Assembly: GCA_963735925.1 (NCBI GenBank)
Contig: CAVTMT010000009.1
Span: 100,696-164,695 of the forward strand
Direction: 5' to 3'
Source: an uncultured bacterium
GTDB taxonomy: Bacteria > Verrucomicrobiota > Verrucomicrobiia > Limisphaerales > J093
DNA: 64,000 nt
The stretch's first letter is position 1, and each line of letters begins with the position of its first letter. The notes under the pieces are model-generated. The model made no database searches. It was not told the DNA's origin and was given only the letters and a program-made list of their open reading frames with translations. A program made the translations under genes and the position numbers. Positions 2,130-39,038 of the stretch are shown piece after piece.

Positions 2130-4439
2130 GTGAAACGGATTCGACAGGCGGCAGTGACCCCGGTCCCCCCACCAGGGCCGGCGCAGGTTCCGCCTTCCGC
2201 CGGGCCGCCCGCGCTCCCGCCCCGTCGTCGCCGGCTGTTCCGCCTCGTGGCCACCGGGGCCGTGCCGCTGCTGCTTCTAGTTCTGCTGGAAGTCGCCTTG
2301 CGCCTCGCCGGCTCTGGGCACGCCACGTCGTTCTTTCTCCGAACGACCCGCGACGGCCAGGAGTTCCTGGTGGACAACACCTGGTTCGGGCTGCGTTTCT
2401 TTCCTCCGGCGCTCTCCCGCAGCCCGGCGCCGACCTCGCTGCGTCGGCACAAGCCGCCCGGCGTGTATCGGATCTTCCTCTTCGGGGAGTCGGCCGCCTT
2501 GGGCGATCCGCGGCCGGCCTACGGGGCCGGGCGGTACCTCGAGGTCATGTTGCGCGAACGGTTCCCCACGCGGGAGTTCGAGGTGGTTTGTGTCGCGATG
2601 ACCGCCATCAACTCCCACGCCATCCTTCCCATAGCCCGCGAGTGTGCCCGCTACGACGGCGACCTGTGGATCGTCTATGCCGGGAACAACGAAATGGCCG
2701 GTCCCTTTGGCGCGAACACCGTGTTCGGACCACAGGCCCCTCCGCTGTTCGCCGTGCGTGCCTACCTGGCCACGCAACGCCTGCGCATCGGCCAGTTCAT
2801 CGCCAACTGGCGGCACCGGCTCGTGCGGGAGAACGGTCCGCCCGCGGCGTGGGGTGGATTAAAGATGTTCCTCGATCGCCAGTTGCCGCTCGATGATCCC
2901 AACAGGGAACGGGTCTATGACCATTTCCGCCAGAATCTTGCCGACCTGCTCCAGGCGGGGCGCCGGGCGGGCGTGTCCGTTCTCCTCAGCAGCGTCGCGA
3001 GCAACCTGAAGGACTGCGCCCCGTTCGCCTCGACCCCGGCTCCGGCCGCCGGCGGGCCGGACCGGGCGGCTTGGGAAGAACGCGTCCAGAACGGCGAACG
3101 GCTGGCCGCCCAAGGGCGCTGGGCCGAGGCCGCCGCGCAATTTCAGGCGGCCCTCGAGCAAACCCCACGGTTCGCTGAACTCCATTTCCGGCGGGGCCAG
3201 TGCTTGCTGGGCCTGGCGAATGTGGACGCGGCGCGCGGGTGTTTCGAGCAGGCCCGCGACCTCGACACCCTGCCGTTTCGCGCCGACTCAACCATCAACG
3301 CCATCATCGAGGAGACGGCCCGTCGCCAGGCGGGCGAGGGCGTGCTGTACGTGGATGCGGCCGCCGCCCTGGCCCGGGAGAGCAGCGATTCGATCCCTGG
3401 TCAGGATTTGTTCTACGACCAGGTGCATCTGAATCCCGAAGGCAACTATCGCCTCGCCCGCGCTTGGGCCGAAGCGATCGCGCCCCGGTTGGCAGGTCTG
3501 GACACCAACGGGCCAGCCACTACCTGGGCGACGCCGGCGGACTGCGCCCAACGCCTCGGGTTGACCGATTGGAATCGCCAGGCGGCCCTCGAGGAAATGC
3601 TCCGTCGGTTGCTCGACGCGCCGTTCACGAGCCAGTGCAACCACACGAACCAGCTCGAACAACTCCGCGGGCAACTGGCCGATGCCCGTGACCGGCTGCG
3701 ATCCCGGTCGCCGCCAGACCTCCGCGCCGGCTACGAGACGGCGATTCGGGATCGTCCCACCGACCACTGGCTGCATCACAACTACGCCGAGTTCCTCAAG
3801 CACGTGGGGGATTTGGCGCAAGCCACGGTCGAAATGCAACGGGTGCGCGATTTGATGCCCCACCATTACGCGGCCTATCTGCATCTGGGCCAACTGCTCG
3901 CCCGCCAGAAGCGATACGCCGAAGCCCGGCAGTCGTTGACGGAAGCTTTGCGCCGGCGCCCGGACCTGTCCGATGCCTGTCTCGAACTCGGTCAGATCGC
4001 CGCCAGCGAGGGGAGGTTGGAAGCGGCCCTCGCCCAGTTCGAGGCCGCCATCGACCGCCGCCCCGAAAGTCTGGGCGTTTACCTGCGCCGGGCCGACGTC
4101 CTGATGGCGTTGAAGCGGCGCGACGCGGCGCTCGAAAGTCTGCGCGACGCCATCCGGCTCCAGCCCTCGTTTTGGGAGGCCCGTTACCTCCTGGGCATCC
4201 AACTGGCAACCGACGGGAACGTCGCCGACGCGCAGACGGAACTCGCCGAGGTCGTGCGCCTGCGACCCGAACACGTTCTGGCCCGTTTGAACCTGGGCAA
4301 CCTGCTGGCCCGACATGGGCGGTTTGACGAGGCACTGGTCCAGTTTCGCGAAGCCGTGCGCCTGGATCCGTCGAACCCGACGGCACGGGAATCCGTGGCC
4401 ACTCTCGAACAACGACCCGCGGGCGCGGCACCGCCCTGA
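2130..4439 (+). CDS. SGNH/GDSL-like hydrolase domain fused to TPR repeats, membrane-anchored
   Basis: It has a GTG start and an N-terminal TM helix (AVPLLLLVLLEVALRL). SGNH-like blocks are present (YRIFLFGESAALG; DQVHLNPEGNYRLA). The C-terminal ~350 aa are TPR-like repeats. Confidence 0.7.
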   Translation: MKRIRQAAVTPVPPPGPAQVPPSAGPPALPPRRRRLFRLVATGAVPLLLLVLLEVALRLAGSGHATSFFLRTTRDGQEFLVDNTWFGLRFFPPALSRSPAPTSLRRHKPPGVYRIFLFGESAALGDPRPAYGAGRYLEVMLRERFPTREFEVVCVAMTAINSHAILPIARECARYDGDLWIVYAGNNEMAGPFGANTVFGPQAPPLFAVRAYLATQRLRIGQFIANWRHRLVRENGPPAAWGGLKMFLDRQLPLDDPNRERVYDHFRQNLADLLQAGRRAGVSVLLSSVASNLKDCAPFASTPAPAAGGPDRAAWEERVQNGERLAAQGRWAEAAAQFQAALEQTPRFAELHFRRGQCLLGLANVDAARGCFEQARDLDTLPFRADSTINAIIEETARRQAGEGVLYVDAAAALARESSDSIPGQDLFYDQVHLNPEGNYRLARAWAEAIAPRLAGLDTNGPATTWATPADCAQRLGLTDWNRQAALEEMLRRLLDAPFTSQCNHTNQLEQLRGQLADARDRLRSRSPPDLRAGYETAIRDRPTDHWLHHNYAEFLKHVGDLAQATVEMQRVRDLMPHHYAAYLHLGQLLARQKRYAEARQSLTEALRRRPDLSDACLELGQIAASEGRLEAALAQFEAAIDRRPESLGVYLRRADVLMALKRRDAALESLRDAIRLQPSFWEARYLLGIQLATDGNVADAQTELAEVVRLRPEHVLARLNLGNLLARHGRFDEALVQFREAVRLDPSNPTARESVATLEQRPAGAAPP

Positions 4440-4456: not shown

Positions 4457-7400
4457 ATGGTCCTGCTCTCGTACTCCCTGCGATGTGCCGTCCGTGGTCT
4501 GGCGGGATGGATGGTGTTCGCGGCCGCGGCCGCGCCGGCCCGGGACAGAGAAACCGCTGGTGACTGGCGTATCACGCCGCTCGCGGTCGCCTCGGCCGGC
4601 CGGACCGGATTCGCGCTGCTCCCTCCGTCGCGGACCGGGATTACCTTCACCAACGTGCTGCCCGAGTCGCGCTTCGTCACCAACCAGGTGTTGCCCAACG
4701 GTTCGGGCGTCGCGGCGGGCGACGTGGATGGCGACGGCCGGTGCGATCTTTTCTTCGGCGGGCTGGGCGGCGGGAGCCGGCTCTACCGGAACCTCGGCGA
4801 CTGGCGTTTCGAGGACCTCACGGCGACCGCGGGGGTGGCCTGTCCCTCGCTCGATGCCACGGGCGCGGCGTTCGCGGATTTGGATGGCGATGGCGACCTC
4901 GATCTGCTGATCAACTCGATCGGAGGCGGAACCCACCTCTTCTTCAACGACGGCCGCGGCCACTTCACGCCGGAGACGGCCGTGCTGAACCCGGGGCGCG
5001 CCGGCACTTCGCTGGCCCTGGCTGATGCCGACGGGGATGGCGACCTGGATTTGTATGTGGCCAATTACCGGACCTCGACCTTGATGGATGCGCCCGGGAC
5101 GCGCTTCACAATCAAGGTGGCCGATGGTCGCCCGTTTGTGGCGACCATCAATGGCCGGCCGCCGACGGATCCGGAGTGGACCAACCGGTTCCGGTTCCAG
5201 TTCGGGCTCGGGGCTGGCGGCCAGGGACGATTCTCCCGCGAGGAACTGGGCGAGCCGGACGTGTTCCTGCTCAACGACGGCCACGGTCAATTCACGCCGG
5301 TGCCGTGGACCGGCGGGGCGTTCCGGGATGAGGATGGTCAACCGCTGGCCCAGCCGCTTTTCGATTGGGGGCTGTCGGTGGCGTTCCGCGACTTCAACGG
5401 CGACGGCCGCCCGGATCTCTATGTCTGCAACGATTTCGCCACGCCGGACCGTTTCTGGCTCAACGAGGGGCAGGGCCGGTTCCGGCTCGCTCCCCGCCTC
5501 GCGCTTCGACAAACCAGCCTGGCGTCGATGGCGGTGGACGTGGCGGACCTGGACCGCGATGGCAACGACGATTTCCTGGTGGTGGAGATGCTGAGTCGCG
5601 ATCACCGTCACCGGTTGACCCAGCGAAACGTCGTGCAAGGCGAAACCCCCGCGGGTTCTCGGATCGAAGGGCGCCCCCAGTACCCGCGCAACACCCTGTT
5701 CTGGAACCGGGGCGACGGCACTTACGCCGAGATCGCCCAGTATGCCGGTCTCGAAGCGTCCGAGTGGTCGTGGGGGCCGGTCTTTCTGGATGTCGATCTG
5801 GACGGGTACGAGGATTTGCTGGTTCCGAACGGGTTCGAGCGCGACAACATGAACGCCGATGTCCAGGCCCACATCCGCCAAGCAACGGCAGGCCGGCGGA
5901 TGCTGACGGCGGACGAGCTCCAACTGCGCCGCATGTTTCCCCGCCTCAACACGGCGAATCTGGCCTTTCGCAACGGGGGCGCGCTGAAGTTTGCGGAGTG
6001 CAGCCGGGAATGGGGCTTCGATCAAGCCACCATTTCCCAGGGGCCGTGCCTCGCGGATCTCGACAACGACGGCGACCCGGACGTGATCGTGAACAACCTG
6101 AACAGCAGCGCCGGCATTTACCGCAACGACAGCTCCGCGCCCCGCGTGGCGGTGCGCCTGCGCGGCCAACCGCCCAACACCAGGGGCGTCGGCGCGCGGA
6201 TCACCGTGGCGGGCGGTCCGGTTTCGCAGAGCCAGCAGATCGTTTGTGGCGGGCGCTACTGCTCCAGCGACCAGGCCCAGCGCACCTTCGCTGCGGGCTC
6301 CGCCGCGTCGCTTGAAGTGCGCGTGCGTTGGCGGAGCGGACGCGAAACCGTCGTCTCGAACGCCCCGCCCGATTCCCTCGTTGAAGTGTTCGAGCCGGCC
6401 GGCCCCATCCCAGCCGCGGCGGCGAGTGATTCCAATTCGGCGGCGGTCGTGACGGCCTCCGGCCTCCGTTTCACGGACGTGAGCGAGGCCATCCGCCACG
6501 TTCATCAAGATGCGCCGTTCGACGATTTCGAGCGCCAGCCGCTGCTGTCGCGCAAGCTCAGTCAACTGGGCCCCGGCGTGGCCTGGTGGGATCTGGACGG
6601 CGACGGACGCGAAGACCTGGTGATAGGCAGCGGTCGCGGCGGGAAGCTGGCCTGGTTCCGCAACCTGGGCGCGGGACGCTTCGAGCGCGGCAACGTCCCG
6701 GCGTGGGACGCGCCGCTCGAGCGCGACGCGGCGGGTTTTGCGGGCGTGGCGCCCGGTGCCTTGCTGGTGGCGTTGGCCAACTACGAGGACGGCGCGACGA
6801 ACGGCCCCGGTGTGCTGACGTTGGGCCCGGCCGCGGCCACCCCGGCGCTGCCGCTGGCGGGACCCAGTTTCGGACCGCTCGCGGTGGCCGATTACGATGG
6901 CGACGGCAGCCTGGACTTGTTTGTGGGCGCACGCGCGGTGAGTGGGCGCTATCCGGCGGCGGGGGCGTCGCAACTTTACCGGTGGCGAAACGGCGCGCTT
7001 GTGCCCGACGCAGAGAACACCCGGGCGCTGCCCGAAGCCCTGGTCAGCAGCGCCCTTTGGACGGACCTCACCGGCGATGGCTGGCCCGAACTGGTACTCG
7101 CCTGCGACTGGGGCGGGATCATCCTGCTGCGAAACGAACACGGCCGGCTCGTGCCTTGGGAGGCACCGCTCACCTGGCCGGAAAGCGCGCCAGCCCATGA
7201 CGGCCGGGACACGATCGGCAGGTTGACGGGGTGGTGGAACGGCGTCGCGGCGGGCGATTTCGACAACGATGGCCGGCTCGATTTCGTGGCGGCGAACTGG
7301 GGCGAGAACTCGCGCTACGAGCATTCGCGGCCCGCGCCGTTGCGCCTCTATTTCGGCGATTTCAACGAGGACGGCGGGGTCGCGGTGATCGCGGCCCACC

Positions 7401-8227
7401 TGGCGCCCGAGTTGGGGCAGTACGCCCCGGACCGGATGCTCGATGCGGCCGCGCGGAGCATCCCGCGGCTGGGCGCGCGCTTCACGAGCCATGCGGCCTG
7501 GGCCAACGCCGGCATGGACGAGGTGCTCGGTGAAGCGCGGCGCACCGCTCAGTATCGCGAGGCAGCCTGGCTGGAATCGACGCTGTTTCTGAACCGCGGC
7601 GACCATTTTGAAGTCCGCGTCCTGCCGGCCGAAGCCCAGTTCGCGCCGGCGTTCGCCGTTTGCGTGGGCGACGCCGACGGCGACGGCAACGAGGACGTTT
7701 TTCTCAGTCAGAACTTCTTCGAAGTGGACTCCGACACGTCGCGCTACGATGCGGGGCGCGGACTCTGGCTGCGCGGCGATGGGCATGGCGTGCTGATGCC
7801 GGTGCGCGGGCAGGATTGCGGGGTGCGGGTCGATGGCGAACAACGCGGCGCCGCGCTGGCGGACTACGACGCCGACGGGCGCGTGGACCTGGTTGTGACG
7901 CAGAACCGTGCGGAGACAAGACTGTTCCACAACACCGGCGCGAAACCCGGTTTGCGCGTGCGGTTGGCGGGGCCGCCCGGGAATCCGGCCGGCGTGGGGG
8001 CGGTGGTGCGGCTGCGTTTCGGCGAGACGACGGGACCGGCACGAGAAGTCCCGTCCGGCAGTGGCTATTGGTCGCAAGCCAGCCCGGTGCTCGTCCTGGG
8101 GACGCCGCAGTTGCCGACGGCGATTCAGGTCCGGTGGCCGGGCGGGCGGTTGACGGAAGGCCGTGTGCCGGCGGGCGTCCGCGCAATCACGGTTCGCGAC
8201 GACGGGCGGGTCGAAGCCGGCCCGTGA
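4457..8227 (+). CDS. FG-GAP/VCBS repeat protein with ASPIC/UnbV domains (CRTAC1 family)
   Basis: It has many DxDGDGxxDL calcium-binding repeat motifs and two ASPIC/UnbV-like segments (NTRGVGARITVAGG...GGRYCSSDQ; NPAGVGAVVRLRFG...GSGYWSQAS). Confidence 0.8.
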   Translation: MVLLSYSLRCAVRGLAGWMVFAAAAAPARDRETAGDWRITPLAVASAGRTGFALLPPSRTGITFTNVLPESRFVTNQVLPNGSGVAAGDVDGDGRCDLFFGGLGGGSRLYRNLGDWRFEDLTATAGVACPSLDATGAAFADLDGDGDLDLLINSIGGGTHLFFNDGRGHFTPETAVLNPGRAGTSLALADADGDGDLDLYVANYRTSTLMDAPGTRFTIKVADGRPFVATINGRPPTDPEWTNRFRFQFGLGAGGQGRFSREELGEPDVFLLNDGHGQFTPVPWTGGAFRDEDGQPLAQPLFDWGLSVAFRDFNGDGRPDLYVCNDFATPDRFWLNEGQGRFRLAPRLALRQTSLASMAVDVADLDRDGNDDFLVVEMLSRDHRHRLTQRNVVQGETPAGSRIEGRPQYPRNTLFWNRGDGTYAEIAQYAGLEASEWSWGPVFLDVDLDGYEDLLVPNGFERDNMNADVQAHIRQATAGRRMLTADELQLRRMFPRLNTANLAFRNGGALKFAECSREWGFDQATISQGPCLADLDNDGDPDVIVNNLNSSAGIYRNDSSAPRVAVRLRGQPPNTRGVGARITVAGGPVSQSQQIVCGGRYCSSDQAQRTFAAGSAASLEVRVRWRSGRETVVSNAPPDSLVEVFEPAGPIPAAAASDSNSAAVVTASGLRFTDVSEAIRHVHQDAPFDDFERQPLLSRKLSQLGPGVAWWDLDGDGREDLVIGSGRGGKLAWFRNLGAGRFERGNVPAWDAPLERDAAGFAGVAPGALLVALANYEDGATNGPGVLTLGPAAATPALPLAGPSFGPLAVADYDGDGSLDLFVGARAVSGRYPAAGASQLYRWRNGALVPDAENTRALPEALVSSALWTDLTGDGWPELVLACDWGGIILLRNEHGRLVPWEAPLTWPESAPAHDGRDTIGRLTGWWNGVAAGDFDNDGRLDFVAANWGENSRYEHSRPAPLRLYFGDFNEDGGVAVIAAHLAPELGQYAPDRMLDAAARSIPRLGARFTSHAAWANAGMDEVLGEARRTAQYREAAWLESTLFLNRGDHFEVRVLPAEAQFAPAFAVCVGDADGDGNEDVFLSQNFFEVDSDTSRYDAGRGLWLRGDGHGVLMPVRGQDCGVRVDGEQRGAALADYDADGRVDLVVTQNRAETRLFHNTGAKPGLRVRLAGPPGNPAGVGAVVRLRFGETTGPAREVPSGSGYWSQASPVLVLGTPQLPTAIQVRWPGGRLTEGRVPAGVRAITVRDDGRVEAGP

Positions 8228-10000: not shown

Positions 10001-11284
10001 ATGAGCGAGCTTCTGTCAGGCGGCGGTCAGACGATGGCCGGGGGATCCCCCCCAGAAACCCGGATGGTCGTCTTCGCCCATGTGCCGCCGCCGCATCACG
10101 GGCAGAGCGCCATGGTGAAGTTGATGCTGGACCTGCTCCAGTGCGCGCCGGGCAACGGTACCGCCACTTCTCCGGCCAACCCGCTGCGGCTTTTCCACGT
10201 CAACGCGCGGCTTTCGCGCGAGATGGACGATGTGGGCAGCTTTCAATTGCGCAAGATTCCCTCGCTCCTGGGGTATTGCGCGCAGGCGATCTGGCTGCGC
10301 CGGCGGCACGCGGCCCCGGTCCTGTACTACGTCCCGGCGCCGCCGGCGCGCGTTCCGCTCCGGCGCGATCTGCTGGCCCTCGCGATCTGCCGGCCCTTCT
10401 TCCCGAAGCTCGTTCTGCATTGGCATGCCGGCGGCCTGGCCGAGTGGCTCGAGACCCAAGCCCACCCCTGGGAAAAGCGTTGGTGCCGGCGACTCCTCGC
10501 CCAACCGGATTTGAGCGTGGTCTTGCGGCCGTTCAACCGCCGCGATGGCGAGTACTTCCATTCCCGCCGCATCGAGGTGATCCCCAACGGCATTCCGGAC
10601 CCGTGTCCGGACTACGTGGGGTCGCTCGAACCCCACCGGATCCACGCCCCGGCATTGCGCCGCCGGACGCTCGCGGCTTGCGGCCAAGGAAGCAGACCGG
10701 GACCGCCCGACTCCGGCCCGGTGGTTTACCGCGCCCTGTTCCTGAGTTTTTGCCGACGGGAAAAAGGGCTCTTCGACGCGCTGGACGCCGTGGCGCTGGC
10801 CAATGCCGAATTGCGCGGCACGCCGCTGCGGGTGGAATTGACGGTCGCCGGCGAGTTCTGGTCGCCGCTCGAGCGCGAGGAATTCGATCGCCGGCTGCAG
10901 GCGCCCGACCTGCAACGCGGCACGCCGTTGGTGCGCTACGTGGGTTTTGCCTCCGGGGCGGTCAAGGAGCGGCTCCTGCGCGAAAGCGACTGCCTGTGTT
11001 TTCCCACCTACCTGCCGGAAGGCTTTCCCGTGGTGCTCGCGGAGGCGATGGCGTACGGCCTCCCGCCGATCATCAGCAACTGGCGGCAACTGCCGGAAAT
11101 CCTGCCCGCCGGCTATCGGGGCGTGATCGAGCCGCGCTCGCCCGCCAGCCTCGCCGCGAAACTGATCGAGTTCGCCCGGCAGGATTACGATCCGGGCCTG
11201 CGCGAGCATTTCCTGGCGAACTACACCGGCGAGCGTTTTGCCGAGCGGTTGCGGGCGGCCTTTCTGAGCGTCAACCGCGCGTGA
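10001..11284 (+). CDS. Glycosyltransferase family 4 (GT-B fold)
   Basis: It has a C-terminal GT4 motif region (CLCFPTYLPEGFPVVLAEAMAYGLPPIISN). The ATG at 10001 is preceded by GAGGG; the ORF could start as early as 9947. Confidence 0.75.
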   Translation: MSELLSGGGQTMAGGSPPETRMVVFAHVPPPHHGQSAMVKLMLDLLQCAPGNGTATSPANPLRLFHVNARLSREMDDVGSFQLRKIPSLLGYCAQAIWLRRRHAAPVLYYVPAPPARVPLRRDLLALAICRPFFPKLVLHWHAGGLAEWLETQAHPWEKRWCRRLLAQPDLSVVLRPFNRRDGEYFHSRRIEVIPNGIPDPCPDYVGSLEPHRIHAPALRRRTLAACGQGSRPGPPDSGPVVYRALFLSFCRREKGLFDALDAVALANAELRGTPLRVELTVAGEFWSPLEREEFDRRLQAPDLQRGTPLVRYVGFASGAVKERLLRESDCLCFPTYLPEGFPVVLAEAMAYGLPPIISNWRQLPEILPAGYRGVIEPRSPASLAAKLIEFARQDYDPGLREHFLANYTGERFAERLRAAFLSVNRA

Positions 11285-12380
11285 TCTGCCGGTAAAGCTG
11301 GAGGTACTCCGCGGCCACCGCCGTGGCGCTCCGCGGACGGACACTCTCGCGCACAACCGCCGGACTCGCCACGGACACCTCGCCGCGGGCGATCCGTCCC
11401 AGGCACCCGGCCAGGCTGGACACGTTGTCCGGCTCGAAATACAGCCCCGTCTGGCCGTCCCGGACGATGTCGATGTTCCCGCCGCTGGCCGAGACCAGCG
11501 CGGGCAGGCCCAGCGCCAGGGCCTCGATCAAGGCCACCGAGCACGGTTCGTTCGTCGAGGGCAACACGAACCAGTCCGCGGCGCGTAACTCGTCCTCCAC
11601 CTTCAGCGACAGCCCGTGAAAGTACCCGTACCGGGTCAGGTCGCGGCTGGCGAGCAACCGGTCGATCTTCCCCGCATAAGCGACGCTGGCTTCGTCCTGC
11701 GGCACCGTTCCCCAGTGATGGAACTCCAGCCGACGCCGCTCCGGCTCCGGGAGGCGGGCCAGCGCTTCGAGGATGAGGTGCCAGTTCTTCCAGCCCACCA
11801 CGTTTCCCAAACCAATCAAGCGGAGCGGACGGCCCGGCTCGACAGGCTGGCTCCGCGCCAGCGGCCGCTCGAAGAAGGCGTCGGCACAGCAGGCCGAGAT
11901 GACGCGGACGTTGGGGGGCCTGGGGTCCAGACCGTAATGCCGGGCCATGTTGGGCGTGAGGACGCACATGTGCAGGCGACGCCGACCGGCCGCCCAGCGA
12001 TACATGCCCCGTCGCCGGGCGTAACCGTGATTCGTAAACACAATCGTCCGGCGACCGATCGTGGCCAGCGCCACGGCGATCGGGAGGGCGCCCCGGGTGT
12101 GGGCGTGGAGGACGTCGAAGGTTTCCTGGCGCAGCAGGGCGCGCAGTTCGGGCAGGGCCCGCCACGCGCGCAGACCCAGTTCCAGGTGGCTGGGCAAATC
12201 CTGGAGCAAATACCGGCTGAAGCGATACTGCATGGCCGGCTGGCGAACCTCGCGGTACGCGGCGTTGACCCACAGCACGTGTTCGCAGCCCGCGCCGGCG
12301 GTCGCCGTCTGGAGGTTGCGCAGGACCGTGAAGATGCCGCCGATGTCCTCGTTGGACCCCAGCAGGTGCAGGATTCTCAT
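11271..12380 (-). CDS. Glycosyltransferase family 4
   Basis: It has the N-terminus MRILHLLGSNEDIGGI and the GT4 motif FVLPSTNEPCSVALIEALALGLPALVSASGGNIDIV. The longer track ORF (to 12998) only adds translation of the tandem repeat array, so codon 207 (ATG at 12380) is preferred. Confidence 0.75.
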   Translation of the reverse strand: MRILHLLGSNEDIGGIFTVLRNLQTATAGAGCEHVLWVNAAYREVRQPAMQYRFSRYLLQDLPSHLELGLRAWRALPELRALLRQETFDVLHAHTRGALPIAVALATIGRRTIVFTNHGYARRRGMYRWAAGRRRLHMCVLTPNMARHYGLDPRPPNVRVISACCADAFFERPLARSQPVEPGRPLRLIGLGNVVGWKNWHLILEALARLPEPERRRLEFHHWGTVPQDEASVAYAGKIDRLLASRDLTRYGYFHGLSLKVEDELRAADWFVLPSTNEPCSVALIEALALGLPALVSASGGNIDIVRDGQTGLYFEPDNVSSLAGCLGRIARGEVSVASPAVVRESVRPRSATAVAAEYLQLYRQITRG

Positions 12381-12483
12381 GATGGCTATCCGCCGCGCTC
12401 TAGTTGATGGTCGCCCCCCACGGGTTTGCGACCAACCTGTGCCCGGCATCGTGCCGGGAATGCGCCCGCCGGGCAAGCGGGGC

Positions 12484-12890
12484 CGAACTCCAGGTGTCCC
12501 GATTCGGTGGAGGCGGTGCCGCCGCACTGCCTTGCGCCGCCGCAGCGGCGCAGCTACCAACCAGAAACCAGGGCACGATCCGGACTCCGGTACCGTCCGT
12601 ACTTGGGTGGAGGCGGTGCTGCCGCACCGCCCTGCGTCGCCGCAGCGGCGCAGCCACCAACCAGAAATCAGGGCACGATCCGGACTTCGGTACCGTCCGT
12701 ACTTGGGTGGAGGCGGTGCCGCCGCACCGCCCTGCGCCGCCGCAGCGGCGCAGCCACCAACCAGAAACCAGGGCACGATCCGAACACCGGTACTGTTCCG
12801 GACTTGGGTGGAGGCGGTGCTGCTGCACCGCCCTGCGTCGCCGCAGCGGCGCAGCCACCAACCAGAAATCAGGACCCGATCCGGACTCTG
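12484..12890. repeat. Tandem array, about 4.2 copies of a ~100-bp GC-rich double-hairpin unit (REP/BIME-like)
   Basis: The unit core 'ggtggaggcggtgc' starts at 12506, 12606, 12706 and 12807 (period 100-101). A partial unit lies upstream of 12506. Each unit contains GGCGGTGC-nnnn-GCACCGCC plus a CTGCG...CGCAG stem. Confidence 0.85.
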
Positions 12891-12936
12891 GCCGCGGAAT
12901 GCCGAGGCTTCACCCGGGCCGGACGCACGGCTCCGC

Positions 12937-14331
12937 TCAGACAGCGCCTTCCAAGTCGGGCGAGCCGGTCGTTGGCATGGCCGGCCCCGGGGCGGCAACC
13001 TCGCTCAACACATAGCGGAGTTTGCCGCCGCGCGGCGGGATTTCCGGCACGGACATGACGGTGACCGGAACTTCCTGTCCGCCCTTGTCGGCCAGATTGG
13101 ACCGAACCCGGGCCAGCGTCTCCTCGAGTCGGGGCCAGGCGGGGTTCGGGACGACGCGAATTTCGATGGAATGGTCCTTCCGCTGGTACACCTGGAATTG
13201 CCGCACCGCGTCCGGGCAATCGTCGAACAGGGTGGTCAGGTAGTCGCCGGCGATGCACCGACCGCTCGGCAGCCGCAAAAGGTCGGAAACGCGCCCGCGG
13301 ATTTTGTCCATCAGCGGCAGCGTACGTCCGCACGGACACTGACCAGGCCGGGCGCGCCCCTGGTCGCCGTTCAAATAGCGAATGATGGGAAACAGCCGGT
13401 TGTGCAGGTCCGTCAGCGCGATGTCGCCATAGGCTCCGTCGGGCACCGGCCGGTGATCCGGGCCAAGAAACTCGATCCGCCGGCTGTCATGAAACCGGTG
13501 CAGGCCCTCGCGGGCCGGGCATTGCGCGGCCAGGTAATAGACTTCGCAGCAGCCGTACTGGTCGAAGACCGGCGCGCCAAAGGCGCGTTGAATGCGCCGC
13601 TCCTGCACGGCCGTGGTCGGCGAGGACGTCAGCCAGATGGCCTGCGGCGCGTGGACCGTGAGCCGACCTTCCAGGACGTACGCTGCCAGGTGATCCACCG
13701 CGCCGACATAACCGTGCAGGAGCGGCGGCCGGACGCGGTTGAAGCGCGCCAGGAATCGATCCATCGCGCCAGCATCCAGGTGGGTGGCGTCCATAAACAC
13801 GCGCCGGACCGGCCAGTCAATGGCGCGGGAAACCAGCCGGTGTTTCCAGTTGTCCGGCTCACGGTACACGGTGGCGTAATCGGTTCCCGGCGGGAGGTTC
13901 CACCAGCTCTCCATCTGCCAGAGCATGGCGGCGCGCGGCACGTTGCGCTGATGGTACACCTTGGCCGGTCGCCCCGTGCTGCCGCCCGTCGTGACGAGAT
14001 TCAGGTCCCGCGGACGCGCCTCGACGGAGACGAGGTCCTGGAAATGGTCGTGCAGGTCCTGTCGGGTCAGCACCGGCACGGCGGCGAAGTCGCCCGGCAG
14101 GCGGAGGTCGTCGGGGCGCAGACCGGCTTCGTCGAAGCGACGGCGATAATACCGCGTTTTCCGATAGGCGTAATCGAGCAACCCTCGCAGGCGACTCCAA
14201 TGCAGCGCCTCGAGCTCGTCCGCGGAAAGCCGTTCGTTCCGCAACGCGAGGCGAAACGCCGCCGCCGCACCCGGCTTCAGGAGCGAGTACTTGGCGAGAT
14301 AGAGGTTCGATTTGAGTCCGGCGAGGCCCAT
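12937..14331 (-). CDS. Adenylate-forming enzyme, phenylacetate-CoA ligase/CapK/F390-synthetase-like
   Basis: A 464-aa ORF. 'VTTGGSTGRPAKVY' matches the AMP-binding P-loop-like motif of PaaK/CapK-type ligases. Confidence 0.7.
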   Translation of the reverse strand: MGLAGLKSNLYLAKYSLLKPGAAAAFRLALRNERLSADELEALHWSRLRGLLDYAYRKTRYYRRRFDEAGLRPDDLRLPGDFAAVPVLTRQDLHDHFQDLVSVEARPRDLNLVTTGGSTGRPAKVYHQRNVPRAAMLWQMESWWNLPPGTDYATVYREPDNWKHRLVSRAIDWPVRRVFMDATHLDAGAMDRFLARFNRVRPPLLHGYVGAVDHLAAYVLEGRLTVHAPQAIWLTSSPTTAVQERRIQRAFGAPVFDQYGCCEVYYLAAQCPAREGLHRFHDSRRIEFLGPDHRPVPDGAYGDIALTDLHNRLFPIIRYLNGDQGRARPGQCPCGRTLPLMDKIRGRVSDLLRLPSGRCIAGDYLTTLFDDCPDAVRQFQVYQRKDHSIEIRVVPNPAWPRLEETLARVRSNLADKGGQEVPVTVMSVPEIPPRGGKLRYVLSEVAAPGPAMPTTGSPDLEGAV

Positions 14332-15046: not shown

Positions 15047-15071
15047 GGAATGAGGTTAGGGCGCTCCGCCG

Positions 15072-15107
15072 GGCCGCGCATTGATGTGCGTCAACCAATG
15101 CGCGGCC
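15072..15107. promoter_or_regulatory. Perfect 12-bp inverted repeat with 12-nt spacer between ilvB stop and DUF2249 start
   Basis: The sequence is ggccgcgcattg-atgtgcgtcaac-caatgcgcggcc, flanked by direct copies of gcgctccgccgg. No U-tract follows on either strand. Confidence 0.4.
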
Positions 15108-15148
15108 GCGAGGCGAGCTGCGCTCCGCCGGTCGGCCGGGCCGGTTCG

Positions 15149-26631: not shown

Positions 26632-28965
26632 TCAAAGCGTGTCTTGCGGCGCATTCTCGCGCGCGCACGGCGGTTTGACCAGTCCCAACCCCGGACCGCT
26701 CAACCACGCCGGCACCAACACCAGCACCGAGGCCTGGGCGGCGACGAACGTACCGGCCAGCAACAGCCCGAAGTGCACCACCGGCGGAAACGACGAGAGC
26801 GTGAACAGCCCCAGCACCGCCACCAGAATCACCGTGGTCCAGATGATGGGCGGACCCTTGACGCGGAGCGTCTCCCGCACCGCCTCGGCCGGGGAACGGC
26901 CCGCCCGCCGCTCTTCGCGCCAGTGGGTGAGAAAGTGCACCGTGTCGTCCTCGACTATGCCCAACGCGACCGCGCCGACCATGACGGTGATCGAGTTGAG
27001 CGGCAGTTGGGCGAAGCCGGCGCAGGCCAGCACGAGCGCGACCGGCACGGCGTTCGCAATCACCGCCAGCGCGGCCAGCCGCACCGAACGCCAGAGCGCC
27101 GCCAAGAGGACCGCGATGAGCGCCACCGCACCCGCCGCGCTGTCCACCTGGCTGCGAAGGATCCGGCGGTCCGCCTCGAGAATCGAATGCATGCCGCGCG
27201 CCGCGGATACACTCACGCCGGCGGGTGCGGTGCGGGTCGCGTAATCCTGGATTTCACGGATCAGATGCAGGTACCGCGACGCCGGCAGATCGCGCGTGCG
27301 CACCACCAGTTCCGCCGTCCGCGCCGCCGGATCGGCCAGCGCGGCCAGGAATGGGAAGTTATACGAGCGGATCGCGGTGGTGAAGAGACCGATCAGGAGC
27401 GGATTCTCCGGGAGCTTCAGCGCCTCCGGTCGGCCGCCTTCCCAAATCTGATTCACCATCGCCAGCAACTGCGGGTACGAAAAAGCCCCGGTGGTTTCGG
27501 GTCGCGACTCGGCAAAACGGTGCACGGCTTCGAGGTAGCGGAGGAAGACCGGGTCGTTGAGGCCGTTGGCCCGGCCGGAGTCGAAATCGATCTGCACCAC
27601 GTTGATGCCGCCATAGACGCGGTCGAGTTCCTCCAGGGCCTGCCGGGTCGGACTGGCCGGCGACAGGGTCTCGATCATGCGCACGTCCGTTCGCACGCGC
27701 GTCAATCCCCAGGCGGCGAACACCGCCGTGAGCACGGCGACAGACACGATCCAGCGTCGTCCGGCTTGCACGCAGCCCACCCAGCGCCCGGCGAAGTCGC
27801 CGGTAACGGACCCGTCGACGGACACGGAGATGGCGCTGCGCCGCGCCAACGGCCAGCGGGTGGCCACGAGCTTGAGCATTGCCAGTCCGGGGCCAAAGGT
27901 GAACCCATGCACAACCGCCAGACACAGGGCGCCCAGCCGGCCGAATTCGATCATTTGCGGCACGCCGCCGAATGTGAGCGACACCAGGCCGAGGACGGTG
28001 GTCAACGTCGAGAGCGCCGCCGGTCGCAGCACCGTTCTCAAGGCGGCGTGGATGGCTGCGTCCGCCGCCAGGCCTTCGTTCGCCGCGCGCCGGTACGCCG
28101 TGAGGAGGTGCATCAGCAAGGTGAGGTGAATGCCGGTCAGCAGCGGCAGCAGCATTACGGAGAAGACATTCAGTTGCGAACCGGCCGCCTGCACGACGCC
28201 AGGCAGGAGGGCCAGCACGGTGACCTGATTCACGAGGGTGAACAGAGTTAGCCGTACCGACCGAAACGTGAGCCAGAGCACGAGCACGACCAGGAAGCAG
28301 GCCGCGGGCAGAAAGCGAACCAGGTCGTGGCGGAGCGTGGCGCGGATTTCGTCGGCGATCAGTGGCACCGCCAGGACGCGCAGCGACAGGCCGGCCGCGC
28401 GAAAGGGGGCGAGCACCGCCTCGGCCTGGGTGCGGAAACGCTCCTGGTCCGACGGGCTGGCGGCCAGGTGGTCGTATTGGACGGTGACCAACGTGTGCTG
28501 GCCATCGGCCGCGACCATGACATTGCGCACGAGCGGGTGGGCCAGGCAGAAGCGCTTCAACTCCGCCAGTTCGGCGGCCGCGAGCCGACCGTCCGGGACG
28601 AGCGGAACCATGTCGAAACTGAGGCCACGCCGCACCGGCTTGACCGAGTGGGTGAGGCTTTTGACCTCGACCACGTCCGGTTGGCGCTCGAAGGCGTCGC
28701 TCAAGCGCCGCACCGTTTCGAGACCCGCGTTCGAGAACAGGTTGGTGAGTTCCAGGCTCACGACCAGGACGTCGGTGTCGCCGAGGATTTCGCGGACCTG
28801 CTCGTAGCTGGCCAGATTGCGCTGGTCACCCTGCAGCAACGCCTTCAACTCCGCGCTGACGCCGAAACGGGGGAGCGGGAGCAACAGCGGCAGGCAGAGC
28901 AACGCCGTGACGGCCAGCGACGCGCGCGGGAAGCGGAGGAAGGGATTCCAGTTGCGGCGCGTCAC
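26632..28965 (-). CDS. RND-superfamily / MMPL-type transporter
   Basis: A 12-TM type duplicated architecture with two large periplasmic loops. The start is uncertain: a GTG at 28965 lies downstream of GGAGGG, while the track ORF extends to 29190. The stop abuts the PmoA-like start. Confidence 0.75.
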   Translation of the reverse strand: MTRRNWNPFLRFPRASLAVTALLCLPLLLPLPRFGVSAELKALLQGDQRNLASYEQVREILGDTDVLVVSLELTNLFSNAGLETVRRLSDAFERQPDVVEVKSLTHSVKPVRRGLSFDMVPLVPDGRLAAAELAELKRFCLAHPLVRNVMVAADGQHTLVTVQYDHLAASPSDQERFRTQAEAVLAPFRAAGLSLRVLAVPLIADEIRATLRHDLVRFLPAACFLVVLVLWLTFRSVRLTLFTLVNQVTVLALLPGVVQAAGSQLNVFSVMLLPLLTGIHLTLLMHLLTAYRRAANEGLAADAAIHAALRTVLRPAALSTLTTVLGLVSLTFGGVPQMIEFGRLGALCLAVVHGFTFGPGLAMLKLVATRWPLARRSAISVSVDGSVTGDFAGRWVGCVQAGRRWIVSVAVLTAVFAAWGLTRVRTDVRMIETLSPASPTRQALEELDRVYGGINVVQIDFDSGRANGLNDPVFLRYLEAVHRFAESRPETTGAFSYPQLLAMVNQIWEGGRPEALKLPENPLLIGLFTTAIRSYNFPFLAALADPAARTAELVVRTRDLPASRYLHLIREIQDYATRTAPAGVSVSAARGMHSILEADRRILRSQVDSAAGAVALIAVLLAALWRSVRLAALAVIANAVPVALVLACAGFAQLPLNSITVMVGAVALGIVEDDTVHFLTHWREERRAGRSPAEAVRETLRVKGPPIIWTTVILVAVLGLFTLSSFPPVVHFGLLLAGTFVAAQASVLVLVPAWLSGPGLGLVKPPCARENAPQDTL

Positions 28966-29269
28966 AGCGGCGGAGACTAACCCTCCGTCCGCACGCAAGG
29001 CGAGTTTTCGCTGCTGGCCTGATCTCGAAAGGGTGGCTGCGCCGCTCTGGCGGCGCCTGCGGACGTGGTCCGCGGCGCCGGGTCCCAACGGGCACACACC
29101 ACATCGCTCGCTCGGTCTGACGCTGCTGGCGGTTCTGCCCCTGGCGCCGCGTGGGTCTGGCGGGCAGGCGCGATCGCCTTGCGCGGGCAATTACCAACGG
29201 CGCCGCGAAACGCACGAGCCGCCAGACAGGGTGGCCTTTCGGCAAGCCGCCGGCCTCTGCCTCCCGCGA

Positions 29270-35542: not shown

Positions 35543-37498
35543 TCAGGCATAGACGCGGAGTTCGTAAACGCGAGCGCTGGCGTCGCCGTTCGTGGCCTGG
35601 ATTTGCAGGCGGAGCGCCCGTGCATCCACCGGCGCAAAGGTGTGCCGCACCAGGCGTTGATGATTGCGCCGCACGCGGACCAACTCGCGCCAGTCGCCAT
35701 CCGCCGCCGGCCGGCAGCTCAGCGCGTAGTCGCGCACGGTTTCGGGCTGCGGGCCGCGGATGATCTGGCGGTTCGTCGCGTCCGACGCCGAAAGCGTCAG
35801 TTCCCGGTGAAAACCGGTGTCGAACGTGATTTGCACCTGGCCGATCCGCTGCGGCTGTTCCCAAGCCAATTCCAGCCACGGCTCGCCCGCGTCGAACTTC
35901 GCGTCCCACCGATGTGTCGTCGCGCCTCGCAAGTCGCGCACGAAACCGTCGATGACTGACTCGGGGCGCGAGAGGTCTTGCGCGGTCGAGGCGGTGACCT
36001 TCGCGCCCCGCGCGAGGTCCAGCGGTTCTTCGTTGCGCCGGCCTTTAAGCGTCTGGTCGTCCCGGAGCAAGGTCTGTTGCAGTTCGCGCAGGCGGGCCTT
36101 GTCTTCGGCAAGCGCGCGCGGTTTCAGGCCGTGCCGGACGCACAGCGCGGCCGCCGTGCCCGCGGCCTGGCCGATCACCGAGCAGGTGGCCATCACGCGC
36201 GTGGAACTGAAGGCCACGTGACTCGCGCTGATGTTCCGGCCGGCCATCCAGAGGTTGCCCACGCTGCGACTGTAAAGGCACCGCAACGGAATGCTATAGA
36301 CCTCCGGCAGCGGCACCGACCGAAACGGCCGCTCCGTCCACGCGTCGAAGCCGGACGGCGGATGATCGTCCATCGGCCAGCCGCCGATCGCCACCGCGTC
36401 TTCCGGTTCGCCGCGCTGCCCTTCGAGGTCGGCCTGCGTGAGCACGTAATCGCCCACGATCCGGCGGCTTTCGCGCTTGCCCGGAATGAAGCCGATCCAG
36501 TCCATGCCCCAGTTCGCGCTGTCCGGTTTGTCGCCGGAGTTTTTGATGTAATCCCAGACGCCCAGCACGATCGAGAGCAGCTCGAAACGGATGCGCTCGT
36601 TGTCGCGGATCGAGTTCAACTGCCCGCCCCACTCGATCCACCAATAACCATACTCCCACGACGAAATGCCGCGGAACTTGAGCATCTCCTTGGTTACTTT
36701 GCGGGCCCAGGCCGGCGGCGTGAACGGAATCGGCCGGCCATAATCGCGCGCGGTGAACAGAATGCTGCTGCCTTGCGTGTGGCTATCCGCGGTGGCGTAG
36801 GCGAGCGATTCGCCGAACTCGTCTTTGGCTTCGCGGCCTTGCCGGATTTCCGCGCCCGCCTCCAGCGCGAGCCGGCAATCACCGGTGCAATCCAGGAATT
36901 GCCGCGCCGTGATCCGGTACAGGTGCTCGGTCTTGTCGCAGCGGGTGAGCACGCGTTGGATCATGCCATCCTTCGTCTCCGCGGCGAAGAGCGTGGTGTC
37001 GAGCAGCAAGGTAATGTTTGGTTCGCGTTTGACTTTGTCGTAAAGGAGGAAGTCCCAAAGCTCGAAGCTGCGATGTGGGTTGTTGACCGCGTCGTCGAGG
37101 CGGAATTCCTCGATCAAGCCGCCCTCGCGCCAGCCCGGCCGGCCGCCGTGGCAGTTGGCGCCGACGATGTGCATCTTCACCTCGCTGCAGGCGTTGCCAC
37201 CCAGTCGCGAGCGGTCCTGCACGAGCACGACTTTGGCGCCGTGTCGGGCCGCGGCAATCGCCGCGCAGACGCCCGCCATGCCGCCGCCGGCCACGAATAC
37301 GTCGCAGTCCAGGTCCACCAGCATCATGTGCGGCTCGCCGGCGAACCGGTCGCGCGCCGGCTCCGTCGGCGCGAGGCGGTCGAACTCAGTGGCGATGGCG
37401 TCGTGCGAAGGTGACGCGGCGGTGAGGCTGTCCGCTTTCACCAGCACCGAGTAACCGGCGAAACCGCCGGCGAGGGAGAGAAAATCGCGTCGCTTCAT
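35543..37498 (-). CDS. FAD-dependent oxidoreductase with TAT signal and C-terminal discoidin-like domain
   Basis: It has MKRRDFLSLAGG, the dinucleotide motif DVFVAGGGMAGVCAAIAAARHGAKVVLVQDR, and a C-terminal F5/8-type-C-like tail ending YELRVYA. Confidence 0.75.
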   Translation of the reverse strand: MKRRDFLSLAGGFAGYSVLVKADSLTAASPSHDAIATEFDRLAPTEPARDRFAGEPHMMLVDLDCDVFVAGGGMAGVCAAIAAARHGAKVVLVQDRSRLGGNACSEVKMHIVGANCHGGRPGWREGGLIEEFRLDDAVNNPHRSFELWDFLLYDKVKREPNITLLLDTTLFAAETKDGMIQRVLTRCDKTEHLYRITARQFLDCTGDCRLALEAGAEIRQGREAKDEFGESLAYATADSHTQGSSILFTARDYGRPIPFTPPAWARKVTKEMLKFRGISSWEYGYWWIEWGGQLNSIRDNERIRFELLSIVLGVWDYIKNSGDKPDSANWGMDWIGFIPGKRESRRIVGDYVLTQADLEGQRGEPEDAVAIGGWPMDDHPPSGFDAWTERPFRSVPLPEVYSIPLRCLYSRSVGNLWMAGRNISASHVAFSSTRVMATCSVIGQAAGTAAALCVRHGLKPRALAEDKARLRELQQTLLRDDQTLKGRRNEEPLDLARGAKVTASTAQDLSRPESVIDGFVRDLRGATTHRWDAKFDAGEPWLELAWEQPQRIGQVQITFDTGFHRELTLSASDATNRQIIRGPQPETVRDYALSCRPAADGDWRELVRVRRNHQRLVRHTFAPVDARALRLQIQATNGDASARVYELRVYA

Positions 37499-37587
37499 GC
37501 TGTGGCCTGACGATACGTCCCCGCCCGTCAGAGGCGAAGGCCCAATTCCCAGCCGGCTGACCGGTGTGTCAACCGGGTGGGGGCCCG

Positions 37588-37655
37588 ACTTGGCGGTGGT
37601 GGTGCCGCAGCGCTCTGCGCCGCCGCAGCGGCGCAGCCCCCCACTGCCAATCAGG
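37588..37655. repeat. Solo diverged copy of the 12.5-kb tandem-repeat core
   Basis: The sequence cttggcggtggtggtgccgcagcgctctgcgccgccgcagcggcgcagccccccactgccaatcagg aligns by eye with the unit cttgggtggaggcggtgccgccgcaccgccctgcgccgccgcagcggcgcagccaccaaccagaaatcagg. Confidence 0.6.
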
Positions 37656-37673
37656 TTGTGAACCTCCCGGAGC

Positions 37674-37735
37674 GGTTACAGCTTCCAGCCTTCGCGGTAT
37701 TGGTGGTTACAGCTTCCAGCCTTCGCGGTATTGGT
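37674..37735. repeat. Perfect 2 x 31-bp tandem duplication spanning the 3' end and stop codon of the Gfo/Idh/MocA gene
   Basis: ggttacagcttccagccttcgcggtattggt occurs at 37674-37704 and again at 37705-37735. Confidence 0.9.
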
Positions 37736-39038
37736 ACTGGATGTACTGGTCCGCCTCCGGGCAGGCCAGAGCGCGCAAGTTCGCCGCGTCCCACTCGATC
37801 CGGCGGCCCAGGCGGTAGGCCACGTTGCCCAGCAAGGCGGCTTCGGTCAGCGCGCCCGAGTAATCGAAGTTGCAGGTGGTGGTGCCGCCGTTGCGGATGG
37901 CCTCGACCCATTCCTTGTGGTGGCCGATCGAGTCCGGGATGGTCTTGGGCGGCGCCTGGAACCCCTTGAACTTATCCTCCGGCAACAACTGTCGGCGGTC
38001 GTAATCCGCGAGCAGGTTGCCCTTTTCGCCCACAAACAACACCCCGCTCCGGAAGTACTGGCGCTGCTCGTCGTCGAGGAGCGGCGACGCCGGTTGTTTG
38101 CCGCCGTGATACCAGGTGAGCGCGACGGGCGGCAGCGTGAGACTCCCGATTTGCCGGGCCGGATAGCGGTAGCGGACGATCGCCCACGGCGGCGTGGAAT
38201 CGGGATGGACCGGCGGGCCGTCCACCGGCTCGACCCAGCTTGGCGCGCGGAGATCGAGCGCCCAGTGCGGCAGGTCCATGAAATGGCAGCCGAAATCCGC
38301 GATGGTGCCGCCGCCGAACGCCCACCAGTTGCGCCAGGCGAACGGCGCGTACTCCGGATGGTACGGGCGGAAGGGCATCGGCCCGATCCACAAATCCCAG
38401 TGCAAGCCCACCGGCACCGGCACCGTGCCCTTGGGCGCGTCTTTCCCGCCATAGACGGCCCCCACCCAGACGTGCACCTCGTTAACCGGTCCGATCGCCC
38501 CGCTCTGGATCAGCTCGACCACGCGGCGGTAGTTGCCACCGGCATGAATCTGGGTGCCCAACTGGGTCACGCGCTTCTCCTTCGCGGCCAGTTCGCGCAC
38601 CGCGCGGCACTCCGCCACCGTGTGCGTGAGCGGCTTCTCGCAATAGACATGGCGCCCGGTGCGCAACGCGGCGGCGGTGGCCACGGCGTGGGTGTGATCC
38701 GGCGTGGCCACCACGACGGCGTCGAGGTCCTTCTGGTCGATGAGCTGGCGGAAATCGTTGTAGCCTTTTGCGCCGGGATGTTTGAGCCGGGCCTGGGCCA
38801 GGAAATTGTCGTCCACATCGCAGAGCGCGGCGACATTCACGGCGTCGGTGAGCCGGGCGACCTCCTCGAGGTCCGCCGCGGCGCGGTTGGCGGTGCCGAT
38901 GAACCCAATGTTGAGTCTTTCGTTCGCGGCGGCGCGGCCGATCCGGATCAGCGGACCGGTGGCGGCGAGGCCGGTGCCGAACAACACGGACCGGCGCAGG
39001 AACTGGCGGCGATTCAAGGCGGTATTCATGGGCTTCAA
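37707..39038 (-). CDS. Gfo/Idh/MocA-family oxidoreductase with TAT signal
   Basis: It has NRRQFLRRSVLFGTGLAA and the Rossmann motif LNIGFIGTANRAAADL; 443 aa. Confidence 0.85.
   Translation of the reverse strand: MKPMNTALNRRQFLRRSVLFGTGLAATGPLIRIGRAAANERLNIGFIGTANRAAADLEEVARLTDAVNVAALCDVDDNFLAQARLKHPGAKGYNDFRQLIDQKDLDAVVVATPDHTHAVATAAALRTGRHVYCEKPLTHTVAECRAVRELAAKEKRVTQLGTQIHAGGNYRRVVELIQSGAIGPVNEVHVWVGAVYGGKDAPKGTVPVPVGLHWDLWIGPMPFRPYHPEYAPFAWRNWWAFGGGTIADFGCHFMDLPHWALDLRAPSWVEPVDGPPVHPDSTPPWAIVRYRYPARQIGSLTLPPVALTWYHGGKQPASPLLDDEQRQYFRSGVLFVGEKGNLLADYDRRQLLPEDKFKGFQAPPKTIPDSIGHHKEWVEAIRNGGTTTCNFDYSGALTEAALLGNVAYRLGRRIEWDAANLRALACPEADQYIQYQYREGWKL

Follow-up and report, generated by a model that had tools for sequence, protein, structure and literature searches.

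The spacer between a CapK-like adenylating-enzyme gene and a family-4 glycosyltransferase (GT4) gene holds a tandem array, probably formed by local amplification of a single element from a dispersed family of GTAG/GTGG-tagged REPs that are organized as head-to-head, REPIN-like dimers. The array lies in a 64,000-nt stretch of DNA from an uncultured bacterium, which we refer to as the window. The host is verrucomicrobial: homologues of its acetolactate synthase gene ilvB are up to 95% identical, and the named ones belong to Verrucomicrobiales/Limisphaerales. The window also encodes an N-methyl/DUF1559 protein.

Tandem Repeats Finder placed the array at 12506–12888 with a period of 100 nt, 3.8 copies and 91% matches, and gave a higher score to a period of 201 nt, with 93% matches. 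An independent repeat search recovered units beginning at 12503, 12603, 12703 and 12804 together with a fifth copy at 37591–37655 (82% identity), and the window contains five occurrences of a 23-nt core hairpin pattern, for which shuffles predict 0.07. The array fills 383 of the 556 nt of the intergenic spacer, and all of its units are direct repeats with pairwise identities of 89–96%, the highest listed being that between units 2 and 4. Units 1 and 3 agree in a CGCC loop, in the C variant of hairpin B and in the arm variant AAACCAGG; units 2 and 4 agree in a TGCY loop, in the T variant and in AAATCAGG.

These results agree with the sequence-only reading, which had described a ~100-bp tandem double-hairpin repeat lying between a CapK-like stop codon at 12937 and a GT4 ATG at 12380, and refine it in several particulars. 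It had counted 4.2 copies where there are 3.8, unit 4 being cut at 12888 after 82 nt, and what it took for a partial unit from 12484 is no piece of the 100-bp unit but the outer arm at the 5′ side of the family element (GGTGTCCCGATTC). The perfect 8-bp stem that it assigned to every unit is present in units 2–4, but unit 1 contains a G-T pair (GCACTGCC). Its second stem, given as CTGCG...CGCAG, exists but is 9 bp long (CTGCGCCGC/GCGGCGCAG); units 2 and 4 have a G-T pair in it, and unit 1 reads TTGCG. The GGTGG...CCACC bracket is likewise present and is best read as the GTGG/CCAC tags of two outward-facing stem-loops. Finally, the long open reading frames had been ascribed to nothing more than read-through of the repeats, and we concur: those crossing the array (12400–12998) are artefacts, because a period of 100/101 nt, which is no multiple of three, shifts the frame and because units 2 and 4 contain a TGA in the sole frame that resembles a peptide sequence. 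For annotators, ORFs through this interval are false. A coding or peptide repeat, suggested by the recurring FLVGGCAAAAAQGGAAAPPPP reading, was rejected on the basis of the same period and the stops in two units, and there is no start or signal region; both strands yield similar peptides because the DNA is palindromic.

Table 1. Positions of the array, its neighbours and related loci (window coordinates unless a contig label is given).
Feature	Position	Strand	Details
GT4 (family-4 glycosyltransferase) gene	11271–12380	-	array neighbour
Promoter-like motif facing GT4	12448–12476	-	TTGCCC 12476–12471, 17-nt spacer, CACGAT 12453–12448; read from sequence
Outer 5′ arm of family element	12487–12505	+	..GGTGTCCCGATTC; aligns with WY5.bin88 5′ arm GGTAGTGTCCTGGTTT
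Unit 1	12506–12605	+	GGTGG 12506–12510, hairpins A and B, CTACC 12554–12558, 3′ arm, ~26-nt linker
Unit 1 hairpin A	12512–12531	+	GGCGGTGC cgcc GCACTGCC, one G-T
Unit 1 hairpin B	12532–12553	+	TTGCGCCGC cgca GCGGCGCAG
Unit 2	12606–12705	+	loop TGCC; hairpin B T variant; AAATCAGG; nearest is unit 4 (96%)
Unit 3	12706–12806	+	101 nt; loop CGCC; C variant; AAACCAGG
Unit 4	12807–12888	+	truncated, 82 nt; repeat ends ..GATCCGGACTCTGG
PaaK/CapK_C-like adenylating-enzyme gene	12937–14331	-	array neighbour
Degenerate half copy	29004–29098	-	hairpin B and 3′ arm (..GCGCCGCCAGAGCGGCGCAGCCACCCTTTCGAGATCAGG..); blastn and covariance model R1
Diverged solo copy	37573–37669	+	hairpin B intact, hairpin A decayed; R1 56.5 bits, E ~2e-12; 82% identity
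Relatives' orthologues of window 37499–37706	L066:1203–1279; L067:2763–2839; L068:~370–500; L069:2030–2313
Other long palindromes in relatives	L063:11836–11908, 3680–3746; L064:2643–2714, 2741–2814; L063:3819–3881 with L064:332–439		arms 20–27 nt, directly after genes, e.g. ilvB; some common to relatives

The whole family element is ~95 nt long and consists of outer inverted arms of ~20 nt each (CGGGTAGTGTCCTGGTTT ... AAATCAGGACACTACCCG) around a double hairpin with the layout GGTGG-n-(GGCGGTGC nnnn GCACCGCC)(CTGCGCCGC nnnn GCGGCGCAG)-CCACC. Its consensus reads CGGGTAGTGTCCTGGTTT-GGTGG-n-GGCGGTGC tgcc GCACCGCC-CTGCGCCGC cgca GCGGCGCAG-CCACC-CATTTGAAATCAGGACACTACCCG. Two different stem-loops of 8–9 bp thus stand back to back, 0–1 nt apart, each with its GTGG tag facing outward, and the outer arms end in GTAG/CTAC. 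Array units and the copies found in a second genome (below) are predicted to fold into a three-way junction, as RNA or as DNA and on either strand. For the latter copies the folds reach −63 to −74 kcal/mol as RNA (z −7 to −9) and have z-scores of −4 to −5 as DNA, and for the array units z ranges from −1.5 to −3. The whole 556-nt spacer folds as RNA at −319 kcal/mol (z −5.2).

That second genome came from a scan for the hairpin-B core in 185,579 species, one genome each, which returned 58 loci, 10 of them (11 copies) in the MAG ‘bacterium WY5.bin88’ (JAKANS01). All 11 of these copies carry the entire element including the arms, which extends beyond the unit first recognized in the window, and the other 48 loci hold the G+C-rich hairpin alone, scattered over unrelated taxa; among the 185,579 species genomes no full element was found outside WY5.bin88. 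A covariance model built from 15 copies (R1) recovers all 15, matches 12487–12586 in the array with 80 bits, and detects one further diverged WY5.bin88 copy (L022:6740–6838); a match at 3967–4054 in the window was discarded as spurious. Scanning JGI metagenomes for the core plus the CCACC tag gave one match, which comprised the hairpin only and represents chance, and no further member. The additional copies that the sequence-only reading had predicted do exist, with three family loci in the window (array, solo copy and half copy) and at least 11 intergenic copies in WY5.bin88, as counted within fragments carrying the exact core. All family copies are intergenic and adjoin unrelated genes, and those downstream in WY5.bin88 encode IlvD/Edd, a histidine kinase, a response regulator, a MiaB-like enzyme, RecQ, an esterase, an acyl-CoA synthetase and others. 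The sequences flanking the array and the solo copy showed similarity to no other locus.

This combination of features corresponds to a known kind of element. As Di Nocera et al. (2013, PMC3733652) describe it, the REP superfamily comprises stem-loops with stems mostly of 6–9 bp and GTAG, or the variant GTGG, at one end, occurring in many dispersed, mostly extragenic copies and frequently as head-to-head or tail-to-tail dimers and tandem clusters that include flanking DNA. According to the same study, the verrucomicrobium Opitutus terrae is rich in GTAG-tagged REPs, most members of its GTAG-20 family carry GTGG instead, and dimer partners may sit 1–2 bp apart (PMC3733652). Here, stem-loops of 8–9 bp with GTGG outside the stem are found in all four array units and in 10 MAG copies: one strand has G-GTGG-n-GGCGGTGC nnnn GCACCGCC, and the opposite strand has G-GTGG-CTGCGCCGC nnnn GCGGCGCAG. 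The two form an inverted dimer with outward tags and 0–1 nt spacing, and the tandem cluster includes flanking DNA, the element plus ~26 nt being repeated 3.8 times. The likeness to REP/BIME elements that had been noted from the window alone is therefore supported, both by the tagged dimer layout (PMC3733652) and by the dispersed intergenic copies. Within this known kind of tagged REP dimer no earlier description of the sequence family was found, and it adds a family to the little-studied REP repertoire of the Verrucomicrobia. Related Verrucomicrobia contain other GTAG/GTGG-tagged long palindromes just after genes (Table 1).

Several observations count against the REP assignment. Only two genomes carry the family in the scans made, the element is more elaborate than a classic 20–40-nt REP, and its outer GTAG is exact in only 5 of the 11 MAG copies. 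RAYT genes are typically flanked by their own REPs, and no RAYT/Y1 gene was found: tblastn with eight RAYT/TIRYT queries (PMC3733652) gave no match in the window and the 10 MAG loci, 152 kb in all and a tiny fraction of the genomes, which says little because RAYTs are usually single-copy.

The same dispersed intergenic copies, the ~20-nt inverted arms and the size of ~95 nt would also be expected of a MITE, a deletion derivative of a DDE-type insertion sequence whose arms would be terminal inverted repeats recognized by a transposase acting in trans. We consider this origin very improbable. Inverted arms are the only one of the usual MITE features present: by eye, no target-site duplication borders any of the 11 MAG copies, and no related full-length insertion sequence was seen. 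Moreover, GTGG-tagged stem-loops inside and GTAG/CTAC at the outer ends characterize REPs (PMC3733652) and not terminal inverted repeats.

The absent target-site duplication fits Y1-type rather than DDE-type insertion. By analogy, a RAYT-type Y1 (HUH) transposase acting on single-stranded DNA was probably what spread the family.

Taking the array as an amplified REP dimer, its internal structure suggests how it may have arisen. The outer 5′ arm of the family is found only at the left edge of the array, where unit 1 keeps it, and units 2–4 carry the linker GTACCGTCCGTACTTG in its place; what is repeated is therefore a segment comprising most of the element and ~26 nt of its right flank. The pairing of unit 1 with 3 and of unit 2 with 4, together with the better score of the 201-nt period, suggests amplification in two steps. 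We infer that a single element was first located between the CapK-like gene and GT4, that the 100-bp segment was then duplicated and the copies diverged by a few substitutions, and that the resulting pair was duplicated again to give units 1 to 4 in their present order. Slippage or unequal recombination at the hairpins would be the likely cause.

Short-read assemblies are unable to cross the array. Two contigs from run ERR12037368 (Logan) carry the flanking genes exactly and both terminate within it, one ending 93 nt beyond the CapK-like stop and the other beginning 237 nt before the GT4 ATG, and the exact copy number derives from a single contig of 574,845 bp. Both points would be compatible with a copy number created by assembly at a locus that truly holds one or two units, which we regard as exceedingly improbable. 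The array itself is probably not an artefact, because its unit differences are nested and because the two short-read contigs enter it from opposite sides. Stutter during assembly would not yield the pattern of differences seen at several positions among the four units, and entry from both sides implies at least two units in an independent short-read assembly. The CapK–GT4 spacer is likely a copy-number-variable site, and one that breaks short-read assemblies.

The stability of the predicted folds raises another explanation, in which the units encode a structured RNA, whether a tandem sRNA, a cis-regulatory leader or a 3′-UTR element, with the double hairpin as its functional fold. One-sided changes in the inner hairpins are in keeping with such an RNA, since in the plus orientation they produce about nine G-U against two A-C mismatches. 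Over the whole structure, however, the MAG copies show 24 G-U and 20 A-C mismatches, with no strand favoured. Covariation among aligned copies had been named beforehand as a check, and no structure-preserving covariation emerged: none of 21 RNAalifold pairs shows a compensatory change, and in a 38-pair structure one pair does, with a covariation score no better than that of shuffles. Over the whole window, no Rfam family matched at its gathering threshold and no useful match appeared at E up to 10, the best score being 18.1 bits against a gathering score of 40. In addition, copies lie in both orientations relative to neighbouring genes and also in divergent promoter regions, a terminator-type U tract is absent, and the single terminator-like site detected is weak (0.3 expected); a comparison of GC skew with element orientation was uninformative. 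Nothing supports a dedicated RNA gene, and we hold this explanation to be highly improbable. The missing covariation speaks against a dedicated RNA, whereas a REP is not called into question by it. As a REP array, the repeats could still affect RNA: a CapK-like transcript running into the array would contain four very stable three-way-junction structures, and by analogy it could act as a 3′ barrier or attenuator, functions reported for E. coli REPs on mRNA.

The other two family loci in the window extend the picture of a dispersed element. The solo copy, noted earlier as a diverged intergenic copy at 37588–37655, is confirmed with a somewhat greater extent (Table 1) and lies between a Gfo/Idh/MocA gene (37707–39038, minus strand) and an FAD oxidoreductase gene (35543–37498, minus strand). 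The half copy is 84% identical to WY5.bin88 copies over 45 nt (blastn, E 4e-6) and scores 18 bits with R1 (E 0.03–0.07 over the window). It lies ~40 nt upstream of the GTG start (~28964) of an MMPL/RND-type gene in the same direction and is followed by TTGCGT. The listed ORF 26632–29190 is over-extended through the half copy.

Four contigs from relatives are syntenic with the solo locus, their FAD-oxidoreductase proteins being 83–89% identical, and in all four the outer arm ..AATCRGGACAYTACCCGG is kept at the same place before the FAD-oxidoreductase gene. Element remnants occupy the orthologous site in L066/L067 and L069, and L068 has the outer arm only. What lies inside differs between genomes: the window has a GTGG-REP dimer, L067 and L068 have a different palindrome (GGCGCGCCGGCTTCCAGCCGGCTT...AAGCCGGCTGGAAGCCGGCGCGCC), and L069 has half of hairpin A together with an unrelated long palindrome with arms of ~40 nt (..CCCTCACCCTACCCCTCTCCCCCAGGAGAGGG..). 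The comparison shows that the solo site is old, and it seems that REP-type insertions are exchanged there beside a constant GTAG-containing arm. Relatives already carry remnants at this site, and no clean empty site was recovered, which counts against the REP assignment as well. Five nucleotides from the solo 3′ arm we observed a perfect tandem duplication of 31 bp (two copies, 37674–37735), which spans the last eight codons, the stop and 4 nt of the Gfo/Idh/MocA gene and is single in L067, L068 and L069; it is a second sign of local instability.

At the array locus, no syntenic relative or usable orthologue was found among the homologue contigs compared. CapK-like homologues with 58–61% identity are followed after 1–6 nt by a GT4 gene, which is not the orthologue of the window GT4 (30% identity over 84 aa), and we therefore abandoned the idea that the CapK–GT4 junction had once been a close one. 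Relatives identified through ilvB (95–87% identity) are non-syntenic and without any copy. Some further features of the neighbourhood were observed. Just downstream of the ilvB stop, window positions 15061–15118 form a palindrome with 23-nt arms (78% complementary) and a 12-nt loop, whose sequence is unrelated to the array element. CapK-like homologues in other contigs lie within exosortase (EpsH) exopolysaccharide loci, but in the window the CapK-like gene comes after ilvB, which gives the locus a rearranged look. Near the glycosyltransferase genes of the window are genes for an FG-GAP/ASPIC-UnbV repeat protein (1256 aa; 4457–8227, plus strand) and a TPR protein with a PEP-CTERM-system PrsT-like match (769 aa; 2130–4439, plus strand).

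One regularity remains unexplained and is the sole lead that we consider worth following, namely a fixed spacing between the element and promoter-like hexamers, which would not be predicted for a purely selfish element. In 9 of the 11 WY5.bin88 copies, a TTG starts 17–19 nt beyond the 3′ arm (binomial p ~1.6e-11). Most of these hexamers read TTGACn, and five of the nine are followed 17–18 nt later by an nAnnnT hexamer; the sequence between arm and TTG is not conserved among the MAG copies. In a tenth MAG copy, L022b, this arrangement is found on the other side, towards a divergent gene, and for all 11 copies a gene starts on the same strand 10–500 nt downstream, mostly at 47–152 nt. The array shows a comparable arrangement on the side of GT4, where a TTG begins 17 nt after the arm ..GGGACAC (12500–12494), as part of a TTGCCC-N17-CACGAT motif with the GT4 ATG 67 nt beyond it. 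To judge from these motifs, transcription of GT4 probably begins at a promoter-like site of its own, which lies 17 nt past the array's outer arm. At two WY5.bin88 loci (L025:1484–1532 and L050:2955–3002), the −10-like hexamer lies only 8–9 nt before the ATG, so the mRNAs of a response-regulator gene and of recQ may be leaderless or nearly so.

Such spacing would be expected if the element were a promoter-proximal DNA module, selected or targeted so that its arm (..ATCRGGACAC) comes to lie 17–19 nt upstream of a sigma-70-type −35. The module could be an UP-like or activator-binding site, a cruciform, an insulator or the result of targeting by the insertion machinery, and the array could then be a multiplied upstream module of GT4; all of this would be compatible with a REP-type origin. 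We nonetheless think it rather unlikely. The motifs are weak, and a stringent sigma-70 scan called no promoter in 12200–13100. At the solo locus a TTGACA lies 7 nt, not 17, from the arm. Copies situated between same-direction genes are co-oriented with them in five of five cases in the MAG but in neither of two in the window (array and solo copy), although orientation is weak evidence because an element in a divergent spacer faces a gene whichever way it lies. The TTG box could moreover be a weakly conserved tail of the element itself, and this possibility, selection for a position upstream of promoters and targeted insertion are three readings that the spacing cannot separate. In its most general form, the proposal would be that a REP-derived module, in either internal orientation, places its arm 17–19 bp upstream of the −35 of many unrelated genes and acts on transcription as an activator or UP-like site, cruciform or insulator, or else that insertion measures its distance from promoters; judged from sequence, we would regard this as unlikely. 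If it were true, the four-copy array would provide the GT4 exopolysaccharide gene with an adjustable upstream region, and if the spacing held genome-wide, the family would offer a clean case for distinguishing REP-type elements recruited as promoter-upstream modules from promoter-aware insertion.

Comparison with known repeat systems places the tagged REP dimer described here among several types of intergenic repeat. Like mycobacterial MIRU VNTRs, the array is a 40–100-bp tandem repeat between co-oriented genes with a copy number that is likely variable, but MIRUs do not consist of paired hairpins, and the small overlapping ORFs that characterize them are missing from this array, where the period of 100/101 nt shifts the frame, units 2 and 4 contain TGA and the array touches neither gene. 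With the Correia elements (CREE) of Neisseria and the ERIC/IRU elements of enterobacteria, the family has in common the form of palindromic intergenic repeats of ~100–150 nt that can influence their neighbours. Those elements have a TA target duplication, whereas none is seen here, and the sequences are unrelated. Correia elements contribute promoter hexamers, but the promoter-like hexamers here lie outside the conserved element. The REP/BIME elements of E. coli are likewise intergenic palindromes in strings of genes that form inverted pairs and tandem clusters; their sequence is unrelated, and the units of the present array are all direct repeats. The REPINs of the Pseudomonas fluorescens REPIN/RAYT system (Bertels and Rainey 2011, PMC3116915) are closer, being two inverted REPs in a ~100-nt unit with a single long fold, intergenic and present as a within-genome population, and they differ in having tens of nucleotides between the two REPs, against 0–1 nt here, and in their RAYT, none having been found in the 152 kb searched. 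The last comparison is with the GTAG-17 to -20 REPs of O. terrae (Di Nocera et al. 2013, PMC3733652). The family here differs from these in its extra outer arms of ~20 nt, in always being a heterodimer of two hairpins and in sequence: the hairpin-B scan gave the element in no genome but WY5.bin88, and the peptides encoded by O. terrae intragenic REPs gave no match. Both have G+C-rich stem-loops of 8–9 bp with a one-sided tag, head-to-head dimers 0–2 bp apart and clusters that include flanking DNA, and both belong to the same phylum (PMC3733652).
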